The position numbers and the translations under genes were made by a program. Below are positions 3,953 to 63,432 of a stretch of DNA of 64,000 bases, in pieces; position 1 is the first letter of the stretch; each line of letters opens with the position of its first letter. Below the pieces are notes generated by a model. The model saw only the letters and a list, made by a program, of their open reading frames with translations. It was not told the DNA's origin and did not search any database. Where the stretch lies: contig CDPCPM010000074.1 of NCBI GenBank assembly GCA_976551045.1, positions 6,076,001 to 6,140,000 on the forward strand, written 5' to 3'. The DNA comes from Glaucostegus cemiculus. Lineage: Eukaryota.

Positions 3953-5344
3953 TAAGAGACGTCTCCATGAATACACTCTCAAGCCTTTCCTCCAGTCTTT
4001 TGATGATATGAAATCATCCCTTGTGGATACCAACCTCCTGACCATTTGAGTAAGTCTTTTTACCAGATAACTTCTCAAAACCTCTCACTATTTTCTATAT
4101 GCTTGTGATTTACTTTTAATTTACCCATTTACATCATACAGGCATTGCTGTAAGGTCAGTATTTATTGCTCATTCCTAACTGATCCAGAGAAGGAATGAT
4201 TAACAATGAGTGCTGGTACAACGTGTTCATTAATCTCCTGCAAATTGCTTATTTTTCCTGGGATGGAATCAGATGTCTCTCCAATGAGAATCATTCTGCA
4301 AAAGCTGATATTAACCTGAAACCATTTTTATGGATATAAGTTGAAGTAAATTTTCAACCTTCACAGACCTCTTCATGTAAATCTTCCATCTTATCAATAT
4401 GCAGCTCTGACCAAAAAGGGAATTAGTGTACTGGTTGAGCAGAGATTGAGCAGATAGTGAGATTAACAGAGAATCATATTGGGATAAGCCATAGTTTGTT
4501 GTCTAAAATGGATTAAAATTGGTTTCTTCAAAGGTGATGACCATGAAGCTGTAGGGAATTGAAAAAATCCCTAAGAGTGTGTTTGGCCAGTAAAAGAAAT
4601 GGAAGTAGTTACCCAGAGTTCATGAAAATGTTCCAAATTTAAATTGAGAGCTGATGTTATTTGTTTTAATTGTCCAATGTGCTGCATTGATTTACTTCAT
4701 AAAGATTTGCTTGAAGGGAAGTGTTACCTCCACACCAATGAACCATTTTCAGAGTCACAAAAGAAATCTATGCAACTTGTCCATACTTGGTATTTTCCCA
4801 GTTTCCTCTATTTGATAAAAATCTCTCATCTCTTATCACGGTTTCACTACTACATAAACAATCAAATATTTTGGTTTACATTAAACTCATTCATCTTTTA
4901 TCTGAGCAGCTGTTTAGTAAAAAGAGAACAAAAGAAAGTAAAGGGCATTTGACCATATGGAGACAGTTCCCTCAAACCTGCCTACCATTAACTCAATCTA
5001 CATAGTCAATCTCCTGAAGAGAGGCTTTTCAAAATATCACTCCATTCCTTAAAACCAATCATGTGAATCAGTGGAAACACCATGGGCAAGTTTTTTTTTC
5101 TCTTAAGAATATGTGTTAACAGTGTGGGGAACCTGAACTAGTTTCGATCCAAGACCACGACTAACTGATACACTTTCCTCGCACCTGCACAGTGGAATTA
5201 CAAATACTGGATCTTAAGTGGCCAATCACACATAATGTCTGGTTAACCTGCAAAGTGTGATCTTCACTGCATAATCTCCTGTTGTAGTGGGAACTACCAC
5301 TTCAACCAGTTGTGTCACTTTGTGGCATCTCAGTAACGTAATTT

Positions 5345-5995
5345 ATTCATCTATTTGACCTCTCCATTTGACCTCCGTGCCTTTGGCCTCCTACATTGTT
5401 CCAACAAAGTTCAGTGTAAGCTTGAGGACCCGATCTTCTGGCAAAGCACATTGCAGCCTTCAGGAGTGTAATTCAAGCAATTCAGTTAATCATCCATAGT
5501 ATCTCACATTTTCAGCATTTATTTTCTTCCTCTCTTCTCTCTGTTAAATTCAGATTTTATTATTCTCCTTCCAGTTACACCTACCCTAGGCATACTATTC
5601 ACCATTCATTAGTCATTACCATCCTTTTTCAGCCAGCGCCACCACCAGTTGCATCTCTCAATATCTTCTAGTCTCCACCATATCACGATGAATGATCTTT
5701 GACTTGAAACTTTAACTCTGTTTCTCTTTCCACAGATGCTGCCTGACCTGCTGAGTGTTTCCAACATTTCTTCTTTTTATTTTCAGATTTCCAGCATCTG
5801 CAGTTTTTTTTAATTTTTGATCAAAGACACCTCCATTTGTGCTCTCCGCCCTCCCGCATTTCTACACAACTTAGAGCTTGTCTTATTTTTATCATTTCTG
5901 TTTTGATCAAAGATTGTTAACCTGAACTATTAACTGGGTTCCACAGTCTATAGTTGCTGCCTGATTGTTTTTAATATTTGCTATTTTTATCTCAG
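5345..5995 (+). mobile_element. Penelope-like element fragment (GIY-YIG C-terminus plus terminal repeat units)
   Basis: FGLLHCSN..Q.KLE..IF...LQPSG remnant, followed by TGAAACTTTAACTCTGTTTCTCTTTCCACAGATGCTGCCTGACCTGCTGAG..ATTTCAGATTTCCAGCATCTGCAG, a unit repeated elsewhere in the window. Confidence 0.75.
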
Positions 5996-6162
5996 TGAAA
6001 GAATAGGCATTGCACCGTTGGAGTGGGGCACTCTTAGCCAAAGCACTCCAAGGACAAGTTCATGCTGGTTGATCTCAGGGAAAGTCCAGGTCGGTTGAAA
6101 ACATAAGAACATGAAGAAGGAGCCTACCGTTCCCTTCATGCCTGCTCTAACATTCAAGAGAA

Positions 6163-6688
6163 TTGTGTAGCACGTTGGCTACCCTGTTACAGGAAAGACA
6201 CAACTAAGCTGAAAAGAATGGAAAGAAGATTTACGAGACTGTTGCCAGGACTTGAGGGCCTAAGTTATAGGGAGAGGTTGGGTAGGCTAGGATTTTATTC
6301 CTTGGAGTATAGGAGACTGAAAGGAGATCTTATAGAGATATATAAAATCATGAGGGGCATAGATAAGATGATGCACAAGGTCTTTTTTTTCCCAGAGAAA
6401 GGGAATCAAAAACTGGAGAGCATAGGTTTAAGGTGAGAGGGGAAAGATTTAAAAGGGACCTGAGGGACCTTTAAAAGGGAATATCTTTATGCAAAGGGTA
6501 GTGCCTATATGGAATGATTTGCCAGAGGAAGTGGTTGAGGCAGGTACAATAACAACATTCAAAATACATTTGGACGGGAAAGGTTTAGAGGGATATGGGC
6601 CAAAAGCATGCAAATAGGACTAGCTTAGAAGGGTATCTTGGTCAGCATGGACGAGTTAGGCCAAAAGGCCTGTTTCCATGCTGTATTA
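6163..6688 (+). mobile_element. CR1-clade LINE 3' region
   Basis: ORF 6218-6436 RRFTRLLPGLEGLSYRERLGRLGFYSLEYRRLKGDLIEIYKIMRGID; CR1-type tail. Confidence 0.92.
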
Positions 6689-6691
6689 CCA

Positions 6692-7454
6692 GAGAATCAG
6701 AATCAGGAATCAGGTTCATTATCACTGACGTATGTTGTGAAATTTGTTGTTTTGCAGCAGCGGTACAATGCAAGATAAAAATCACTATATGTTACCAAAA
6801 AAAATTAAATAGTGCAAAAGAGGAATAACGAGGTAGTGTTCATGGATTCAGGGACCGTTCCGAAATCTGATGGCCGTGGGGAAGAAGCTGTTCCTGAAAT
6901 GTTGAGTGTGGGTCTTCAGGCTCCTGTACCTCCTCCCTGATGGTAGTAACAAGAAGAGGCCATGTCCCAGATGGTGAGGGTCCTTAATGACGAATTCCAC
7001 CTTCCTGAGGCACCGCGTCTTGAAGATGTCCTTGATGGTGGGGAGGGTTGTGCCTGTGATGGAGTTGGCTGAGTCTGCAACCCTCTGCAGCCTCTTTTGA
7101 TCCTGCACATTGGAGCCTCCATACCAGTCAGTGATGACTGGTGTGTGTTTTCCCAACTTGCCCTTCCTGAATCAATTCCCCTTCCCTTCCTCTTCACACA
7201 ATCAATTCTTTGGTCTTGCTGATGTTGAGTGCAAGGTTGTTGTTGCGACACCATTCAACCAGCCGATCTATCTTTCTCCTGTACACCTCCTTGTTGCCAT
7301 CTTATATTCTACCAACAACAGTGGTGTCATCAGTGAATTTATAGATGGTGTTTGAGCTGTGGCTAGCCACACAGTCATGAGTATAGAGAGCAGTGGGCTA
7401 AGCACACATCCTTGAGGTGTGCCTGTGTTGATCTTCAGTGAGGAGGAGATGTTA
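6692..7454 (-). mobile_element. Rex1/Babar-type LINE with RT core remnant and an internal deletion
   Basis: Minus strand reads INTGTPQGCVLSPLL..YTHDC..SSNTIYKFTDDTTVVGRI (RT, FxDD) at about 7200-7454, joined directly to the C-terminus (ORF 6848-7156); (CTGATT)n tail near 6692. Confidence 0.9.
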
Positions 7455-8497: not shown

Positions 8498-10120
8498 TAC
8501 ATGCTATTTGGTAACACTGTACACAGTCAGTGGTTTCCATCTGTAGGTCCATCATATACATGGATGAGCCCCCTATAGTTTCCAGAAGCATGGAGGTATT
8601 AACAAACAGTTCCCCAGATCTCACCTAGCCTGTTGGGTTACATTGAAGCAATCTTGCTAGAGTATCCACTCCACTTAATCCACTACACTTAATGTGTAGT
8701 CAAGCAGCAAATGCTGGCAGCGAGGTGCTTTGACTAGACTTTAGGATAATACTTATACATTTTCCTTTTATTCCTGGATTCTGCTTCCATTTTTTTTTCC
8801 AGTGGGATAATCCATTGCAGGTATAAATCTGAGAGGGTAAAACTCGTTCCAGCCGCACAGCTACATTTCTGACCTGCACCGATATTTCAGCGTTAGGTTA
8901 ATTTGCCGTCACTGCTGGTATGGATTCTGAAATCAGGAAAAGCTGGAACCAGGTCTGTCAATAATGTCTCTGCAGTCTCCTGTGGGTTTTGAGGTTTAAA
9001 GCTTACAATTATTCCATGGCTGTCATGTGTGATGTAAACATTTCCCTTGTGCTGAAACCTGCTGCACCATTTCACTCTGCATGCTTACCCCTCTCTCTTT
9101 CAGCCTTGCATCTCTCCTGCTGATACCAACCAAAACTGGCTGCGCTATCAGATTTCTTTCCCTCTCAAACAACTGCCTCTCAGGATGTGGGATTAGACTT
9201 GAAATCTTTTCTCCTGCAAGCAAATTGGCTTAATCCCATGCATTCTCCATCTGATTGGGCTATGGACAGGATAGGTCCCCACCACTATCTGAACAATGCT
9301 GCTATCACTAATGAAGCCAAATACCCTTCCGGTCTGGACGTAGATTCTAAGTTTAAAATATTATTTTTTCTGTTGTTCTGAGTAACAAGATGATCTGTGC
9401 TTCAATTTTAAGGATAGCTTCCTCATTGGTTCACTTATCAGTTACCACATAAACCATTTTGCAGCATGTTTTAACTTTGCCTCCATTCAGTGTGAATTTG
9501 TCATTTGTACAGAAAATGGAAAGGTGGGTATGATAATAACATGTATTCTATTTAACAACTGAGTATCATTCTTAGCACAGATCATATCACTGCACAGTTT
9601 GATAGTACTATGGTGTAGTATTAAAAATTAAATGAATCTAAGAGCCTGAGAGAAAGACTGGGGTGTGTATAACTCCTAGTGTGATTACCTAAACGAGAAA
9701 GGTAGTTGTCAGCTGAAAGGCTGCCCCAGGTGCTCTTGGTAGATTCAGAATGATGACCTTTCTATGAGAGAACATCTTTGCTGCAGAAACAAGCAAGAAC
9801 CAAGATAAGTTTGTTACAGACTTGCAGATATAAGCACTTGATCTGATCAATGTGAGACAATATTGCACTCCAATCAGGTCTGATATCTTGGTCTGAACAG
9901 AAGCAAAGGAACTAATGGCTTGCTTCATATGCTTGAATTTCTCCTGCACAGGGTCAGTAAATAACAACACACATTGAGAAGTAAAGGTAAATTCTTAATC
10001 AGGCCAACACAGTATCGACATCTTCATCTGGACTTGCATTTAGCATTACTCCCTAGAGAATATCTAATGTACTTCTCAGGTAATAGTCTCTTTTCTGAAC
10101 CCCTAAGAGTAGAGCAATAA

Positions 10121-14550: not shown

Positions 14551-15413
14551 TGAGAAGGTTCATGTCAGTTGGGGTTTGAGGTTTTACGTCCCACCTCACC
14601 CGAGCAGACCTGCTTTAGGGAGTTAAAGTTACACAGGCACTTTTATTATTATGATAGCATACCTTACCATAAGTAGCACATCGGATATTCACCAGTACAT
14701 TATAAATAACAAGTAGTATCAGAGGTAGACTTCTCTGCTGTGCTCCAAACTGAAGGTTCACATGTTTGCCATAAAATGTTTAACAGGATCATCCAAGTTC
14801 CTCTTTCATAGGTCCATCAATAATTCTTATTTTTTCAGTCCTGTTTTCTCTGGACTTTTTACAATCTTTGCTCTGAAAAGATCATTCGTTTATCTTTATA
14901 CATTGGCTTGATGAAGGCCATGATTATGTTCAATTAGTGCTTGAAATGGACTGATACTTTTCCTTCCTTCCTTTACAATTTGTAGGATTTAATATCCTTA
15001 ATTATTTAACAAAATCAGAATATTGTTAACTAATGTGGATGAGGACACAATTAGGAAAATATTCCTTAACATGTGAGAATTAATCCAATTCCACTGATCG
15101 TGGAGTTCAAGGTCTTGCACTCTTTTAATATATTGTTATGTTCTACATGATTGAATTGAGGTGTAAAATGAATTGATGAATGAAATTAGGACTTTGTGCC
15201 ATGTTCAGCATATAAAGCAATCCTCCATCACCTTCTCTGTGCATGGATCCCTCACACTCAAAGACTTTGGGCTTACAGCAGTGATATCAATCACAAATGT
15301 CAAGCACACTTGATGATCCTGCTGCAAAATTGGACCATGGATACACGATGAAGAAGCCACAATGGTCATCAACGACAGAATAGGACCTAATGAAAGAAAA
15401 CAGGCTTTGTTGT

Positions 15414-15631
15414 GGACCACAAAACAAACTGCTGGAGGAGCTCAGCAGGTCGAGCAGAATCTGTGGGGAGAAAGGAATTGTCAATGTTTCGGGTCAAGAC
15501 CCTGTTATTAGGGTCTCAACCTGAAATGTCAACAATTCCTTTCACTTCACAGATGTTGCTTGATACGCTGATTTCCTCCAGCAGTTTGTTTTTCTGATCC
15601 AGATTCCAGCATCTGCAGTGTCTTGTGACTC
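15414..15631. repeat. Fold-back (head-to-head) copy of the PLE terminal repeat
   Basis: AAAACAAACTGCTGGAGGA..GACCCT / AGGGTC..TCCTCCAGCAGTTTGTTTT arms of about 90 bp around a 6-nt centre (GTTATT). Confidence 0.85.
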
Positions 15632-17929: not shown

Positions 17930-18845
17930 TAAAAATGGAAGAGTGTAGAGTTCTGCATTGGAAGGAGGTAAAAGGGTAAGTGTTGCACCTCTGGTGGTTG
18001 CACAAGAGGTGGAGGATAGAACTGGAGCATGCAGAGTGAATGATCCCAAAGGAATGGTAAAAAGGGGGTAGAGGGGAAAACGTGGCCCTTTTACCTGAAC
18101 TTTTACCTCCTTGCCTTATATCATCCAAAACCCAATATACTCCTTCCAGTTGAAGCTATGATTTACTCATATTTCTTTCAAGGTACTGTATTGTTTACAA
18201 TGCTCATGATACAGTCACCTCCAAAATGAAGAGACCAACTATAGACTTAGTGACCACATTAGGAAACACCTCCGCTCAGTCAGAGTGTCGTGTCAACTAC
18301 CTGCTTAATTATTCATCCATTTCCCAACTTAACCTCTCTATCCAAGGCTTTCTACACTGCCAATGAAGTTCAATGTCAACTGAAAGAAACACACTTCATC
18401 TACTGACTGGCTGCATTACAGCCTTCCAGAATCAACACTTTGGTTCAGAAGTTTCAGGTGATCAACATTTCCAGCATTTAAGTTTCAGATTTCCACCATT
18501 CACAGCATTTTCCTTTGGTAATTGCAAATAACAACTTGACTTCTGCCATTTACACCTATCTCAGACCAGTTTTTTGTTTCTTTATGTCCAATTACTGCCT
18601 GCTTTCACCTTGTGCCATCATCCCTTTTTATTATTAAAACTCTTCCACCCTTCCCTCCAATCACAGACCTTCCCTAGTGTTCTCCCTCCACTTTCCTCTA
18701 CACCTTAACATTTGTTTATCTTGAACTTTTCCAATTGGAGGTCATGGACCTGAAATGTTGTCTATTTCCCTCTCCACAGATACTGCCTGAGCTACCTGAG
18801 TATCTCCAGCATTTTCTACCTTTATTTCAGATTCCTGGCATTTAT
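17930..18845 (+). mobile_element. Penelope-like element: inverted linker segment, GIY-YIG endonuclease relic and terminal repeat
   Basis: 18135-18460 (+) resembles SFQ.K..FT.....YC..CS......ET..RL.DH...HLRSV..GFLHC..E.Q..LKE.HFI..L..LQPS; 17930-18090 (-) gives CNHQRCNTYPFTS; terminal repeat at 18730-18845. Confidence 0.78.
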
Positions 18846-27729: not shown

Positions 27730-27925
27730 TCTTTCTTGGTCTTCGCCCTATCATGTCCCCTTTTTTAACCTCCTCCCTCCCCTTCATCTGCAACTTTAAA
27801 CATATTTGTTTTCTAACTTTTCTAGCTCTGATGAAAGTTAATTGATCTGAAATGTGAACACTTCTTCTCTCTCCACAGATGCTGCCTAACCTACTCAGTA
27901 TTTCGAACATTTTCTGCTTTTATAT
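27730..27925 (+). mobile_element. PLE terminal repeat with hammerhead remnant
   Basis: CTGATGA 27828-27834 and GAAA 27849-27852, followed by CTCTCCACAGATGCTGCC. Confidence 0.75.
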
Positions 27926-29169: not shown

Positions 29170-29910
29170 AAAACCAAGAAAACTGCAGGTACTGGAAATC
29201 TGAAAACAAAAGATGCTGGAAACACTCAGAAGGTCAGACAGCATCCGTGGAAAAGGAAGCAGAGTTAATGCCTCAGGCTGAAGACTCTTTTTCAAATATG
29301 GGAAAGAAAGGGAAGGTTAGTTTTAAGTTGCACAGAAGGTTTGGGGAGGGTTGAATAATACCTGTGCTACGGTGAGGACAGGATTGTTGTGAGGATAAGT
29401 TACTGATGGGAGCAATTAAAGGGTGTCAAAGGAGTATGATGTATTGCAAACAGCATGTCAGGGTGTGCAAATGGAGAGGGGAGAAAGCAGAGCCAATATC
29501 ATAGACAGATGACTCACTGCTAAAATTGGTTTGTTCTGGTATTAACAGAGAAAGTGCATTACCTGAAGTTTGAGAATTCACTATTGGATCTAGAAGCCTA
29601 CAGTGTGTCTAGACAGAGTCATAGCATCATACAACACAGAAACAGGCCCTTCAGCCCATCGTGTCCATGCCGACCAAGATGCCCATCTAAGCTACTCCAA
29701 TTTGCCTGCGTTTGACCCATATCCCCCTAACCTTTCCTATCCAATGAGATCCAATGACATAAGAGGTGCTGTTCCTCAAGGCATTGGGCCTTGATATAAC
29801 ATGATTCACAAGTCACAGAGGGAGTGGAATGGAGAATTAAAGTAACAGGCAATGGGAAGGTAGGGTTGCCCTTGCAGATTGAGTGCAGGTGCTCCACCAA
29901 GTGTTCCACC
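29170..29910 (-). mobile_element. Penelope-like element (GIY-YIG C-terminus plus terminal repeat) with a nested CR1 tail at 29614-29742
   Basis: Minus ORF HLVEHLHSICKGNPTFP and LEEQHLL; reverse-complement terminal repeat AACTGCAGGTACTGGAAATCTGAAA..CATCCGTGGAAAAGGAAGCAGAGTTAA. Confidence 0.78.
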
Positions 29911-37459: not shown

Positions 37460-37665
37460 TTATTCCCATTCTTTATCCTCTCTCTGCCCCACTTTCTCTG
37501 CTACTGAAACCTAACTTGTTTCTATCTTTCCTAGTTCTGATGAAGGTACCCAGACCTGAACCCTTAACCGTTTCAATGTCCACAGGTATTGCTTGACCTG
37601 CAGAGTGTTTCCAGCACTTTGTTTTAATTTCATTTTTCCAATATCTGCAGTTTTTTGATTTCTCT
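37460..37665 (+). mobile_element. PLE terminal repeat with the best-preserved hammerhead remnant
   Basis: AGTT-CTGATGA-AGGT-ACCCAG-ACCT-GAA-CCCT-T-AAC at 37533-37568, then CCACAGGTATTGCTTGACCTGC..ATCTGCAGTTTTTT. Confidence 0.78.
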
Positions 37666-37779
37666 TCACTCCAGTGGTTGTGTTTTACTGATTATACATT
37701 TCCTCTGATAGTTGTTTTCAACTTGATAGTTAGTCACAAAATTCTTTTCTAATGAGATCTTTATTCAACTGCTTCTGCT

Positions 37780-44810: not shown

Positions 44811-44879
44811 GTAAGTGATCGCCAGGGACGTGAGTTCCAGCCCTACTGCTCATTGGTTAGGCAGTGTCGAAGCTTCAAT

Positions 44880-45062
44880 GGAGTCACAAGAGACTGCTGC
44901 AACAAACAGTCTGCTGGAGGACCTCAGCAGATCGAGCAGCATCTGTGGAGGGTAAAGGAAATATCAACGATTTGAGTCGAAACTCAGAAACACCGACAAC
45001 TCTTTTCTCCCCATAGATGCTGCTCGACTTGCTGAGTTCCCCCAGTAGATTGCTTGTTGCTT
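44880..45062. repeat. Fold-back PLE terminal repeat
   Basis: GCAACAAACAGTCTGCTGG..TCGAGCAGCATCTGTGG / CCATAGATGCTGCTCGA..CCAGTAGATTGCTTGTTGC. Confidence 0.82.
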
Positions 45063-45424: not shown

Positions 45425-45520
45425 CTATTGTCCAGATGAAGGACCCAAAATCTTGACTGTCCATTTTCCTGCATGGATGCTGCCTGACCCCCTGAGTTCC
45501 TTCAACATCTTGTGTGTTGT
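45425..45520 (+). mobile_element. PLE terminal repeat fragment
   Basis: GTCCAGATGAAGG..TTGACTG..GGATGCTGCCTGACC..CTGAGTTCCTTCAACAT. Confidence 0.6.
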
Positions 45521-50169: not shown

Positions 50170-50870
50170 AGAGATACATAATTCCCTGAAGGTAGAGTCA
50201 CAGGTAGACAGGGTTGTAAAAAAAGGCTTTTGGCATCCTGGCATTTATAAATCAAAGTATTGAGTATAGGAATTGGAATGTTTTGGTGAGGTTGTATAAG
50301 TCATTGGTGAGACCAAATTTGGAATATTGTGTGCAGTTCTGGTTGCTGAACTACAGGAAGGATGTCAGTAAGATTGAAAGAGTGCCAAGGAGATTTACTA
50401 GAATGTTGCTAGGTCTTCAGGAGTTGAGTTACAGGGAAAGATTGAGCAAAGTTAGGACTTTATTCCTTGGAGCAGAGAAGAATGGGGGGAGATATGATAG
50501 AGGCTTACAAAATTATAAGGGGCATAGACAGAGTTAAAGCAAGTAGGCTCTTTCCACCTAGATTAGGAGAGATAACTACAAGAGGACATGGCTTTAGGGT
50601 GAAAGGGGAGAGGTTTAGGGGGAAATTTAGGGGGAACTTCTTCACTCAGAGTGGTGGGAGTGTGGAATGGGCTGCCATCTGATGTAGTAAATGTGGGCTC
50701 ACTCTTAACTTTGAAGAGTAAATTGGATAGATACATGGACGAGAGAGGTCTGGAGGGATATGGGCTGGGTGCAGGTAAATGGGACTAGCAGAATAATGTT
50801 TCAGCACAGACTAGAAGGGGCGAATGGCCTGTTTTCTGTGCTGTAGTTTTCTATGGTTCTATGGTTCTAT
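50170..50870 (+). mobile_element. CR1-clade LINE 3' region, relatively well preserved
   Basis: ORFs 50283-50537 and 50467-50682 (LYKSLVRPNLEYCVQFW..; GDMIEAYKIIRGIDRV..TRGHGFRVKGERFRG), frameshifted; (TTCTATGG)n tail. Confidence 0.93.
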
Positions 50871-61856: not shown

Positions 61857-62637
61857 TCTCAGAATCAGAATCAGAATCAGTTTTATTGTCACAACCATAT
61901 ACATACATAGTATGCATAGGAACAAGATACCGTCCTCCTCAGGTGCTCGTCCCATTAAATAACAAACAGCAGAGACACACGGACACACAGAACAAAAAAA
62001 ACATTAAAAACTACGAAAGTTTAAATTAAATTAAATATGGCAGGTTAAATTAAATACGGCCGGTAATTAAATAAATAGTTATTAAAGTGAACAGGCTGGT
62101 GGCGGGCATTTAAAGTGCTGGTGCATTTCTGTGCACCTAGCATCCCTTAGTGTTAACAAGGAAGATGGAGGAATGAGAGAGTTTGCAGTTCTGGTGGCTT
62201 GCGGAAAGAAGCTATTGCTCAGCCTGGTCGTTCTCGCCCTGATACATTTGAGCCTCCTTCCAGATGGCAAAATTGTAAAGAGATGATGGGAGGGGTGTGA
62301 AGGATCCGCCATTATATTTTTGGTCTCCCTAACACAATGGTCCTTGTATATGTCTGCGAGGGATGGAAGAGAAACACCTATGATCCTCTCTGCAGCCTTA
62401 ACTATCCTCTGGAGGGACTTCTGCCCAGCAGCTGAGCAGCTTCCAAACTAAACAGTGATACATTGGGTTAAGATGCTCTCAATGGTCCCTCTATAGAAAG
62501 TTTTCATAACTGAGGGATGGGAGTTCGCTTTCCTCAGTCTCCGCAAGAAGTAGAGGCGTTTCTGGGCTTTCTTCGTGAGGGCCGTGATGTTAGTGGACCA
62601 GGTCAGGTCATCGGTGATGTGCACCCCCAGGAACTAG
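61857..62637 (-). mobile_element. Young Rex1/Babar-type LINE, 5'-truncated, distinct subfamily
   Basis: Minus strand FLGVHITDDLTWSTNITALTKKAQKRLYFLRRLRKA..FYRGTIESILT (DUF1891-like) through DPSHPSHHLF..RLSNSFFPQA, with one stop at 62448-62450; (CTGATT)n tail. Confidence 0.93.
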
Positions 62638-63242: not shown

Positions 63243-63432
63243 GACACAAGAGAGAGCAGATGCTAGAATCTAAAGCAACAAACAATCTGCTGGAGGAACT
63301 CAATGGGAAGAGAATTATCCTGATGCAGGACTTTGGACTTGAAACATTGCCAGTTCCTTCCACCAACCCCACCTCCCCCAAACAGATATTGCTCGATCTG
63401 TGGAATTTCTCCAGCAGGTCGTTTGTTGCTTT
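63243..63432. repeat. Fold-back PLE terminal repeat retaining a hammerhead remnant
   Basis: AAAGCAACAAACAATCTGCTGGAG / CTCCAGCAGGTCGTTTGTTGCTTT arms; centre CTGATGC-AGG..ACTT-GAAACATT at 63320-63348. Confidence 0.78.

Follow-up and report, generated by a model that had tools for sequence, protein, structure and literature searches.

The motif at 37533–37568 is very likely a decayed copy of a minimal type I hammerhead ribozyme at the end of a Penelope-like element (PLE), inactive and functionless at this spot. It lies in a window of 64,000 nt from Glaucostegus cemiculus (contig CDPCPM010000074.1, positions 6,076,001–6,140,000, in an assembly of 2.85 Gb), which has a GC content of 40% and a CpG observed/expected ratio of 0.20. 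The best explanation, which we regard as highly probable taken as a whole, is that the copy is a relic from the end of a Neptune-type PLE, that in the source elements cutting would need a dimer or a protein, that the RT of the element stops early, and that the inserted copies decay neutrally.

The features are collected in Table 1. The piece that carries the motif is about 180 bp long, with a left edge that is uncertain within 37462–37490, and has neither an ORF nor a paired partner copy. In blastn it is 69–75% identical to PLE loci, with the ends of the matches gathering at 37650–37670, and repeat-depth contigs span 37483–37661. Positions 15.1 (37561) and 16.2 (37563) are both C. A15.1 and G16.2 have thus gone, destroying the invariant 15.1–16.1 pair and the palindrome. 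The earlier note had drawn stem II of this copy as AGGT paired with ACCT, which is out of register with the family; in register the stem has two mismatches. An active hammerhead has an A15.1–U16.1 pair and an intact stem II, and this copy has neither. Forced into the target dimer fold it reaches +20 kcal/mol, compared with −10 to −19 kcal/mol for five intact natural copies. The insertion is present at the orthologous place, together with its flanks, in contigs of three other organisms, and is about 7% diverged in the one contig that spans it.

Table 1 Positions of the 37533 copy, its parts and the other PLE-derived pieces in the window
Feature	Position	Strand	Remarks
5'-truncated PLE end piece (pyrimidine-rich 3' UTR, hammerhead motif, ~95-nt tail)	37483..37661	+	29-nt class; no ORF
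Stem I, 5' strand (AGTT)	37533..37536	+	
Core C3–A9 (CUGAUGA, intact) and the extra nucleotide typical of PLE min-HHRs	37537..37544	+	published consensus CUGANGAH
Stem II and 3-nt loop	37545..37557	+	2 mismatches in family register (covariance-model alignment)
G12–A14 intact, then 15.1/16.2 lesions up to predicted cut site 37565/37566	37558..37565	+	
Stem I, 3' strand, AAC pairing with GTT	37566..37569	+	
29-nt-class copy, core and stem II decayed	5680..5793	+	blastn, covariance model
Inverted pair of two 5'-truncated copies, neither with CUGAUGA	15410..15600	both	single long hairpin, −119 kcal/mol
GIY-YIG endonuclease remnant of PLE ORF, decayed	18087..18296	+	~450 nt upstream of 18739 copy
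29-nt-class copy lacking CUGAUGA, terminating a longer PLE fragment	18739..18840	+	
29-nt-class copy	27823..27861	+	11/11 core positions kept; G at 17; palindrome decayed; stem II broken
29-nt-class copy, core heavily decayed	29179..29340	-	blastn
Second inverted pair	44879..45050	both	source of spurious sub-threshold miRNA match
U4A-core copy (CAGAUGA), stem II deletion	45428..45510	+	covariance model (motif 45428–45459)
A9C-core copy (CUGAUGC), stems decayed	63315..63424	+	blastn, covariance model (63315–63353)

The repeat is dispersed. Seeded blastn finds 15 merged pieces in the window, and a profile of the tail only, with the ribozyme part excluded, finds 142 copies in 664 kb (the window and 600 kb of flank) compared with none in the reversed control, a local density of about 214 repeat pieces per Mb. 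The six motif strings that had been quoted from the window are all found at the positions given for them. The copies at 37533, 27824, 18739 and 5701 belong to a class with a 29-nt motif, while those at 15509 and 63320 bear the tail or core of a subfamily (A9C) of a 28-nt class. A covariance model, built from 100 core-selected genome copies, matches the window best at 27823–27861 (E 0.0008) and then at 37532–37570 (E 0.003). Six of its seven best window matches include five of the six cited copies, the copy at 18739 reaching E 1. Every copy in the window is defective and none is intact, just as had been supposed when they were described as mutated and probably inactive.

Some further observations concern the window. 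There is a weak match to the covariance model on the minus strand at 10012–10035 (E 0.05), with a U4A-type core and a deleted stem II, which is absent from the blastn pieces. A sub-threshold match to MIR8643 at 44909–45050 (E 2e-6, 47 versus 135 bits) was rejected as the hairpin of an inverted PLE pair. The bare pattern CTGANGA-N6-30-GAAA occurs 13 times in the window, weakly above the 6.3 ± 2.5 occurrences given by chance, and does not match at 37533. Pfam has no match to the 149 window ORFs of at least 72 aa. The short frames at 851–1228, 6107–6436, 6848–7171, 50220–50537 and 62082–62447, also without a Pfam match, look like C-terminal ends of CR1/L2-type LINE proteins.

The identity of the motif is clearest in the family as a whole. 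Genome-wide, CTGAYGAA-N11-15-GAAACGTH is matched at 4,865 places compared with 54 in the reversed control, and a perfect core with a G–C stem II is found 442 times genome-wide compared with none. In copies that were not selected by their core, the hammerhead base is the majority base at every core column, CpG decay having split G12 in the 28-nt class. The family layout consists of stem I, CUGAUGA, one extra nucleotide, a stem II of 4–5 bp, GAAA-C-G-U-H, and the second strand of stem I; the extra nucleotide, between A9 and 10.1, is A in 42/45 and 31/34 copies. The consensus has the CTGANGA..GAAA core and paired stems on which the earlier note had let its reading depend, and CUGAUGA with GAAA is rightly called a hammerhead core. 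There was no need to reconstruct it, since thousands of intact copies exist in the genome.

At positions 15.2/16.2 the unselected copies carry TG, CA or CG (23, 13 and 12 of 59 in the 28-nt class; 11, 17 and 4 of 40 in the 29-nt class), which confirms an ancestral palindromic ACGT, with no helix III. ATGT and ACAT had been proposed to be the two CpG-decay products of ACGT, and this holds in both classes. The ancestor that had been inferred is accordingly right in its ACGT. It is not a single ancestor: it blends at least four subfamilies, and it omits the extra nucleotide after A9.

In 96 distinct core-selected rows, 74.5% of cells are paired under the named structure, compared with 14–41% when the partners are slid. 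Covariation over the whole structure is barely above that of shuffles, of which 17/500 reach the score, or 68/500 for pairs changed on both sides. It consists of two inherited events at the level of subfamilies rather than of many: a full compensatory change at pair 2.1–1.1, which in unselected copies is CG in 23/36 of the 28-nt class and UA in 20/25 of the 29-nt class, and a G–C, G–U, A–U series at 10.1–11.1, which is G–C in the 28-nt class and G–U in 13 and A–U in 13 of 33 copies in the 29-nt class. Covariation of stems I and II between subfamilies, which had been suggested as a test, is thus found at these two pairs and is weak over the structure as a whole. The U–A cells at pair 10.5 in the structure test were set aside as double CpG decay. 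RNAalifold, run on core-selected copies, predicted another helix, of 4 bp, on columns fixed by the selection, and the active dimer was the lowest-energy dimer in none of the natural copies folded. Taken together, the evidence supports a minimal type I hammerhead with a palindromic ACGU and a GUC or GUU triplet, at which its homologues suggest that it would cleave.

There are at least four subfamilies. The dinucleotides at 11.1 are CA 24, TG 12 and CG 12 of 57 in the 28-nt class, and TG 35, CA 1 and CG 1 of 44 in the 29-nt class; as the second CpG-decay product, CA, is nearly missing from the latter, its ancestral base at 11.1 was U. The exact stem-complete 29-nt form has only 2 matches genome-wide, so the 29-nt class is the older. 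Within the 28-nt class there are two core variants. The U4A core (CAGAUGA; loci L152–L171) was counted by eye in 83 of the first 100 of 1,775 matches, and the A9C core (CUGAUGC then A; loci L172–L191), counted in the same way, in 80 of the first 100 of 1,700. Each has its own tail, found in 10/15 and 8/14 copies respectively compared with 3/37 and 1/37 canonical ones. The A that follows A9C could substitute for A9. Further 28-nt-class variants were seen at loci L002, L224, L231 and L233 and at flank loci L093, L099, L110 and L121, among them a recurring one marked by A at position 7, in which loop 2 and the tail are both different. Young-looking copies with a G–A mismatch at stem I pair 2.2–1.2 were seen at several of the loci L001, L003, L005–L008 and L033–L060; those at L001, L003 and L005–L008 lie inside larger duplicated blocks with long shared flanks, and were possibly amplified passively.

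The origin of the repeat from PLE ends, which had also been proposed, is borne out by its surroundings. A single ORF piece from the upstream frames of motif loci was used as a query for GIY-YIG domains, and in 29/30 of the best loci (the best 30 of 31,741 first-look candidates) the repeat lies 600–700 nt downstream on the same strand. By a strict regular expression, the upstream frames of motif loci read as GIY-YIG in 3/129. The window's own GIY-YIG remnant, which tblastn aligns to the natural ORF pieces of loci L224/L227 at 41% identity (E 4e-7), lies ahead of the 18739 copy and so ties the 29-nt class directly to PLEs. The natural ORF pieces of loci L224–L228 contain RT motifs, a CX4CxxC linker, and a GIY-YIG domain with two internal cysteines and downstream histidines. 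Their Pfam matches to RT and GIY-YIG are sub-threshold (E 0.01–0.03, in 3/6 ORF pieces), and Pfam has no match to two short PLE pieces. The source on Neptune and Nematis (10.1101/2021.04.23.441226), as far as it was consulted, gives as their signature a C-terminal GIY-YIG with a CCHH motif and a CX2-5CxxC linker after the RT. The ORF pieces suggest a Neptune-type PLE, Neptune being preferred to Nematis because it is the clade with the linker that has been reported from vertebrates.

No complete pLTR-ORF-pLTR element was found in 20 ten-kb loci chosen by GIY-YIG match; all 20 are truncated or broken, several with an inverted partner. The ATG of the core opens only a short frame in the copies seen. 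At one locus (L222:2834–4240, G000:C255) a PLE GIY-YIG remnant has grown into a long array of 33-bp tandem repeats with the frame kept open. Beside PLE fragments at L230:651–2327 there is a piece of a leucine-rich-repeat transmembrane gene, 559 aa in a single frame, presumably LRRTM-like.

The inserted copies decay neutrally, with CpGs decaying quickest. Among the 67 of the 142 copies that could be aligned (the other 75 having too little core aligned), none keeps both core and palindrome, and the mismatch in the core is similar to that in the flanking tail (8.2% versus 9.8%, and 12.1% versus 14.8%; Fisher p 0.45 and 0.29). This is in keeping with the earlier picture of an abundant family that spreads relics. 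In the 664 kb, direct pairs within 600 bp number 9 compared with 9.0 expected, and divergent inverted pairs 28 compared with 4.5 expected, involving 52/142 copies. Inverted pairs would form long hairpins and not the dimer, and since copies are single or inverted with no excess of direct tandems, dimers in cis are not favoured.

The action of a dimer would therefore be a property of the source elements, as published homologues suggest. There, stems I and II of the motif would form without a helix III, and cutting after GUC or GUU would need either a second copy, by pairing of the ACGU palindrome, or a protein of the element. The anatomy of the copies shows that the element RT starts about 60–130 nt past the motif and mostly stops early, which scatters short end pieces and inverted pairs.

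The 5' ends of the copies provide clues as to the RNA from which they were made. Copies of the main 28-nt subfamily were chosen by a 20-nt tail match alone (3,245 and 716 genome-wide), and 100 and 40 were mapped. The ends are not scattered evenly: 15/57 of those in a 55-nt span sit 3–5 nt ahead of C3, where simulated uniform truncation would place 4.4% (corrected p 1.5e-5). The weighted share of copies starting there is 15.5%, with 30% within 0–9 nt. The test rests on the main 28-nt subfamily, and 37533 belongs to the older 29-nt class; in core-selected loci of all classes a cruder caller shows the same tendency, with 30/124 ends within 6 nt. At the cut site there are 1/100 and 2/40 boundaries, a weighted 1.7% over two positions compared with a background of about 0.5–0.6% per nt, which is compatible with a footprint of about 1%. 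The shortest copies thus begin just ahead of the motif and not at the cut site, and were likely copied from uncut RNA. We take this to mean an uncut template RNA whose start lies at stem I. Neither these ends nor the arrangement of the copies, with its inverted pairs and no surplus of direct ones, hints at an origin from cleaved RNA.

The sequence at the pile-up, YCAGTY, is initiator-like; no downstream promoter element matches at the expected spacing. Drosophila Penelope is described, in the material consulted, as having an internal promoter in its pseudo-LTR. A splice acceptor (CAG in stem I) was rejected as the cause of the pile-up: most such copies keep the AG and have no common upstream sequence, and there is no GT-AG joint among the 15 joints listed of 78. 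Stalling of the RT at the hairpin is disfavoured, as the ends should then gather at the stem's 3' foot. A pyrimidine tract with CAG at the start of stem I looks acceptor-like at 37510–37534 and at loci L013–L030, and a second such site lies at 37570–37585, just ahead of an ATG about 25 nt past the cut site; clean spliced reads were not seen. Drosophila Penelope has an intron whose end lies at helix I. Against the reading of the template RNA, reads from a related organism cover the motif deeply and yet neither start nor end preferentially at the cut site or stem I; this test is a weak one, as the libraries were fragmented and the species is a different one.

On the basis of the template reading and the amplification of the U4A and A9C cores, we tentatively hypothesise that the ribozyme is the extreme 5' end of the element RNA, that transposition in vivo used uncut RNA, and that cutting is uncoupled from copying. 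It would then serve another step, such as freeing or translating the element RNA.

Three other explanations have to be weighed. That the likeness to a hammerhead is chance in a repeat end is exceedingly improbable. It is true that a scan with Rfam gave no hammerhead match in the window and that covariation is weak overall, but Rfam equally misses six loci with core-pattern copies, so that its negative is uninformative, and the published class is matched in the position at a PLE end, the complete core, the extra nucleotide, the palindrome and the compensatory change. Another reading has the family acting on host RNA, with intact copies still cleaving host transcripts either in cis or in trans. 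Core-intact copies do number in the thousands, and in the related organism reads over the motif are abundant, with 91–96% continuing into unlike flanks. However, none of those reads ends at the cut site, direct pairs are at chance level and inverted pairs in excess, and published PLE hammerheads do not cut as monomers and cut only weakly as dimers. We thus consider an action on host RNA improbable.

A more serious contender, though still an unlikely one, accepts the descent from a hammerhead and supposes that the motif is now mainly a structural, promoter or protein-binding signal, with cutting weak or dispensable. It would account for the spread of U4A and A9C as subfamilies with tails of their own and for the absent cut-site footprint, and in PMC11167929 catalytic mutants leave insertion in vitro unaffected. 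Against this, all subfamilies retain the rest of the core, the two stems and a cleavable H17, PMC3088659 reports that natural core variants can remain active, and the A after A9C could take the place of A9. The preferred reading remains that of a decayed relic of a PLE hammerhead.

The 37533 copy itself matters little, being an ordinary worn PLE end. The family, by comparison, is a large natural series for studying the role of PLE hammerheads in the transposition cycle. It has four or more subfamilies distinguished by their stems and cores, its intact copies run into the thousands, and its insertion ends allow the template RNA to be read. What deserves to be followed up is the 5' ends at stem I and the amplification of the U4A and A9C cores.

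In kind, the motif is already published. Cervera and de la Pena (2014; PMC4209133) described min-HHRs in the pLTRs of metazoan PLEs, including Neptune and Poseidon of fishes, coelacanth and Xenopus, and in the part of their alignment compared, rows such as Xenopus and oyster match the family motif. Shared with the sections consulted are CUGANGA with the extra nucleotide, the G–C opening of stem II, GAAA-C-G-U-H without helix III, a short stem I, mostly lone copies and opposite-strand pairs, and several consensus families per genome. Of the alignment rows compared, none is from a cartilaginous fish and none has a U4A or A9C core; in G. cemiculus the 29-nt class opens stem II with A–U or G–U, loop 2 is only 2–4 nt, and the copy number is far above the cases given there. 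A literature search, covering sources other than Lunse et al. (2017) and parts of the PMC4209133 supplement, found no paper on the repeat family or the 5'-end pile-up. The dimer-cleaving PLE variants of Lunse, Weinberg and Breaker (2017), compared by their description in the review PMC6765202, are likewise of type I, with a palindromic, very short stem III and a dimer mechanism, and that work may already list such shark-type motifs.

The closest functional parallel is PAc, the Poseidon element of Anolis carolinensis (Frangieh et al., 2024; PMC11167929, in the parts consulted). There too the hammerhead is near the element end, with fixed copy ends downstream, uncut RNA is the main template in vitro, and no RNA-seq reads are found at the cut site. 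PAc differs in belonging to the Poseidon clade and in having an ORF that starts at stem II, whereas the ORF of G. cemiculus carries a Neptune-type linker. The non-LTR retrozymes (10.64898/2026.07.22.740005, as far as consulted) are also type I hammerheads derived from PLE pLTRs, with one chondrichthyan genome reported, but they are direct tandem arrays, whereas the pieces in G. cemiculus are truncated PLE ends in which, in the local sample of 664 kb, direct pairs are not enriched.
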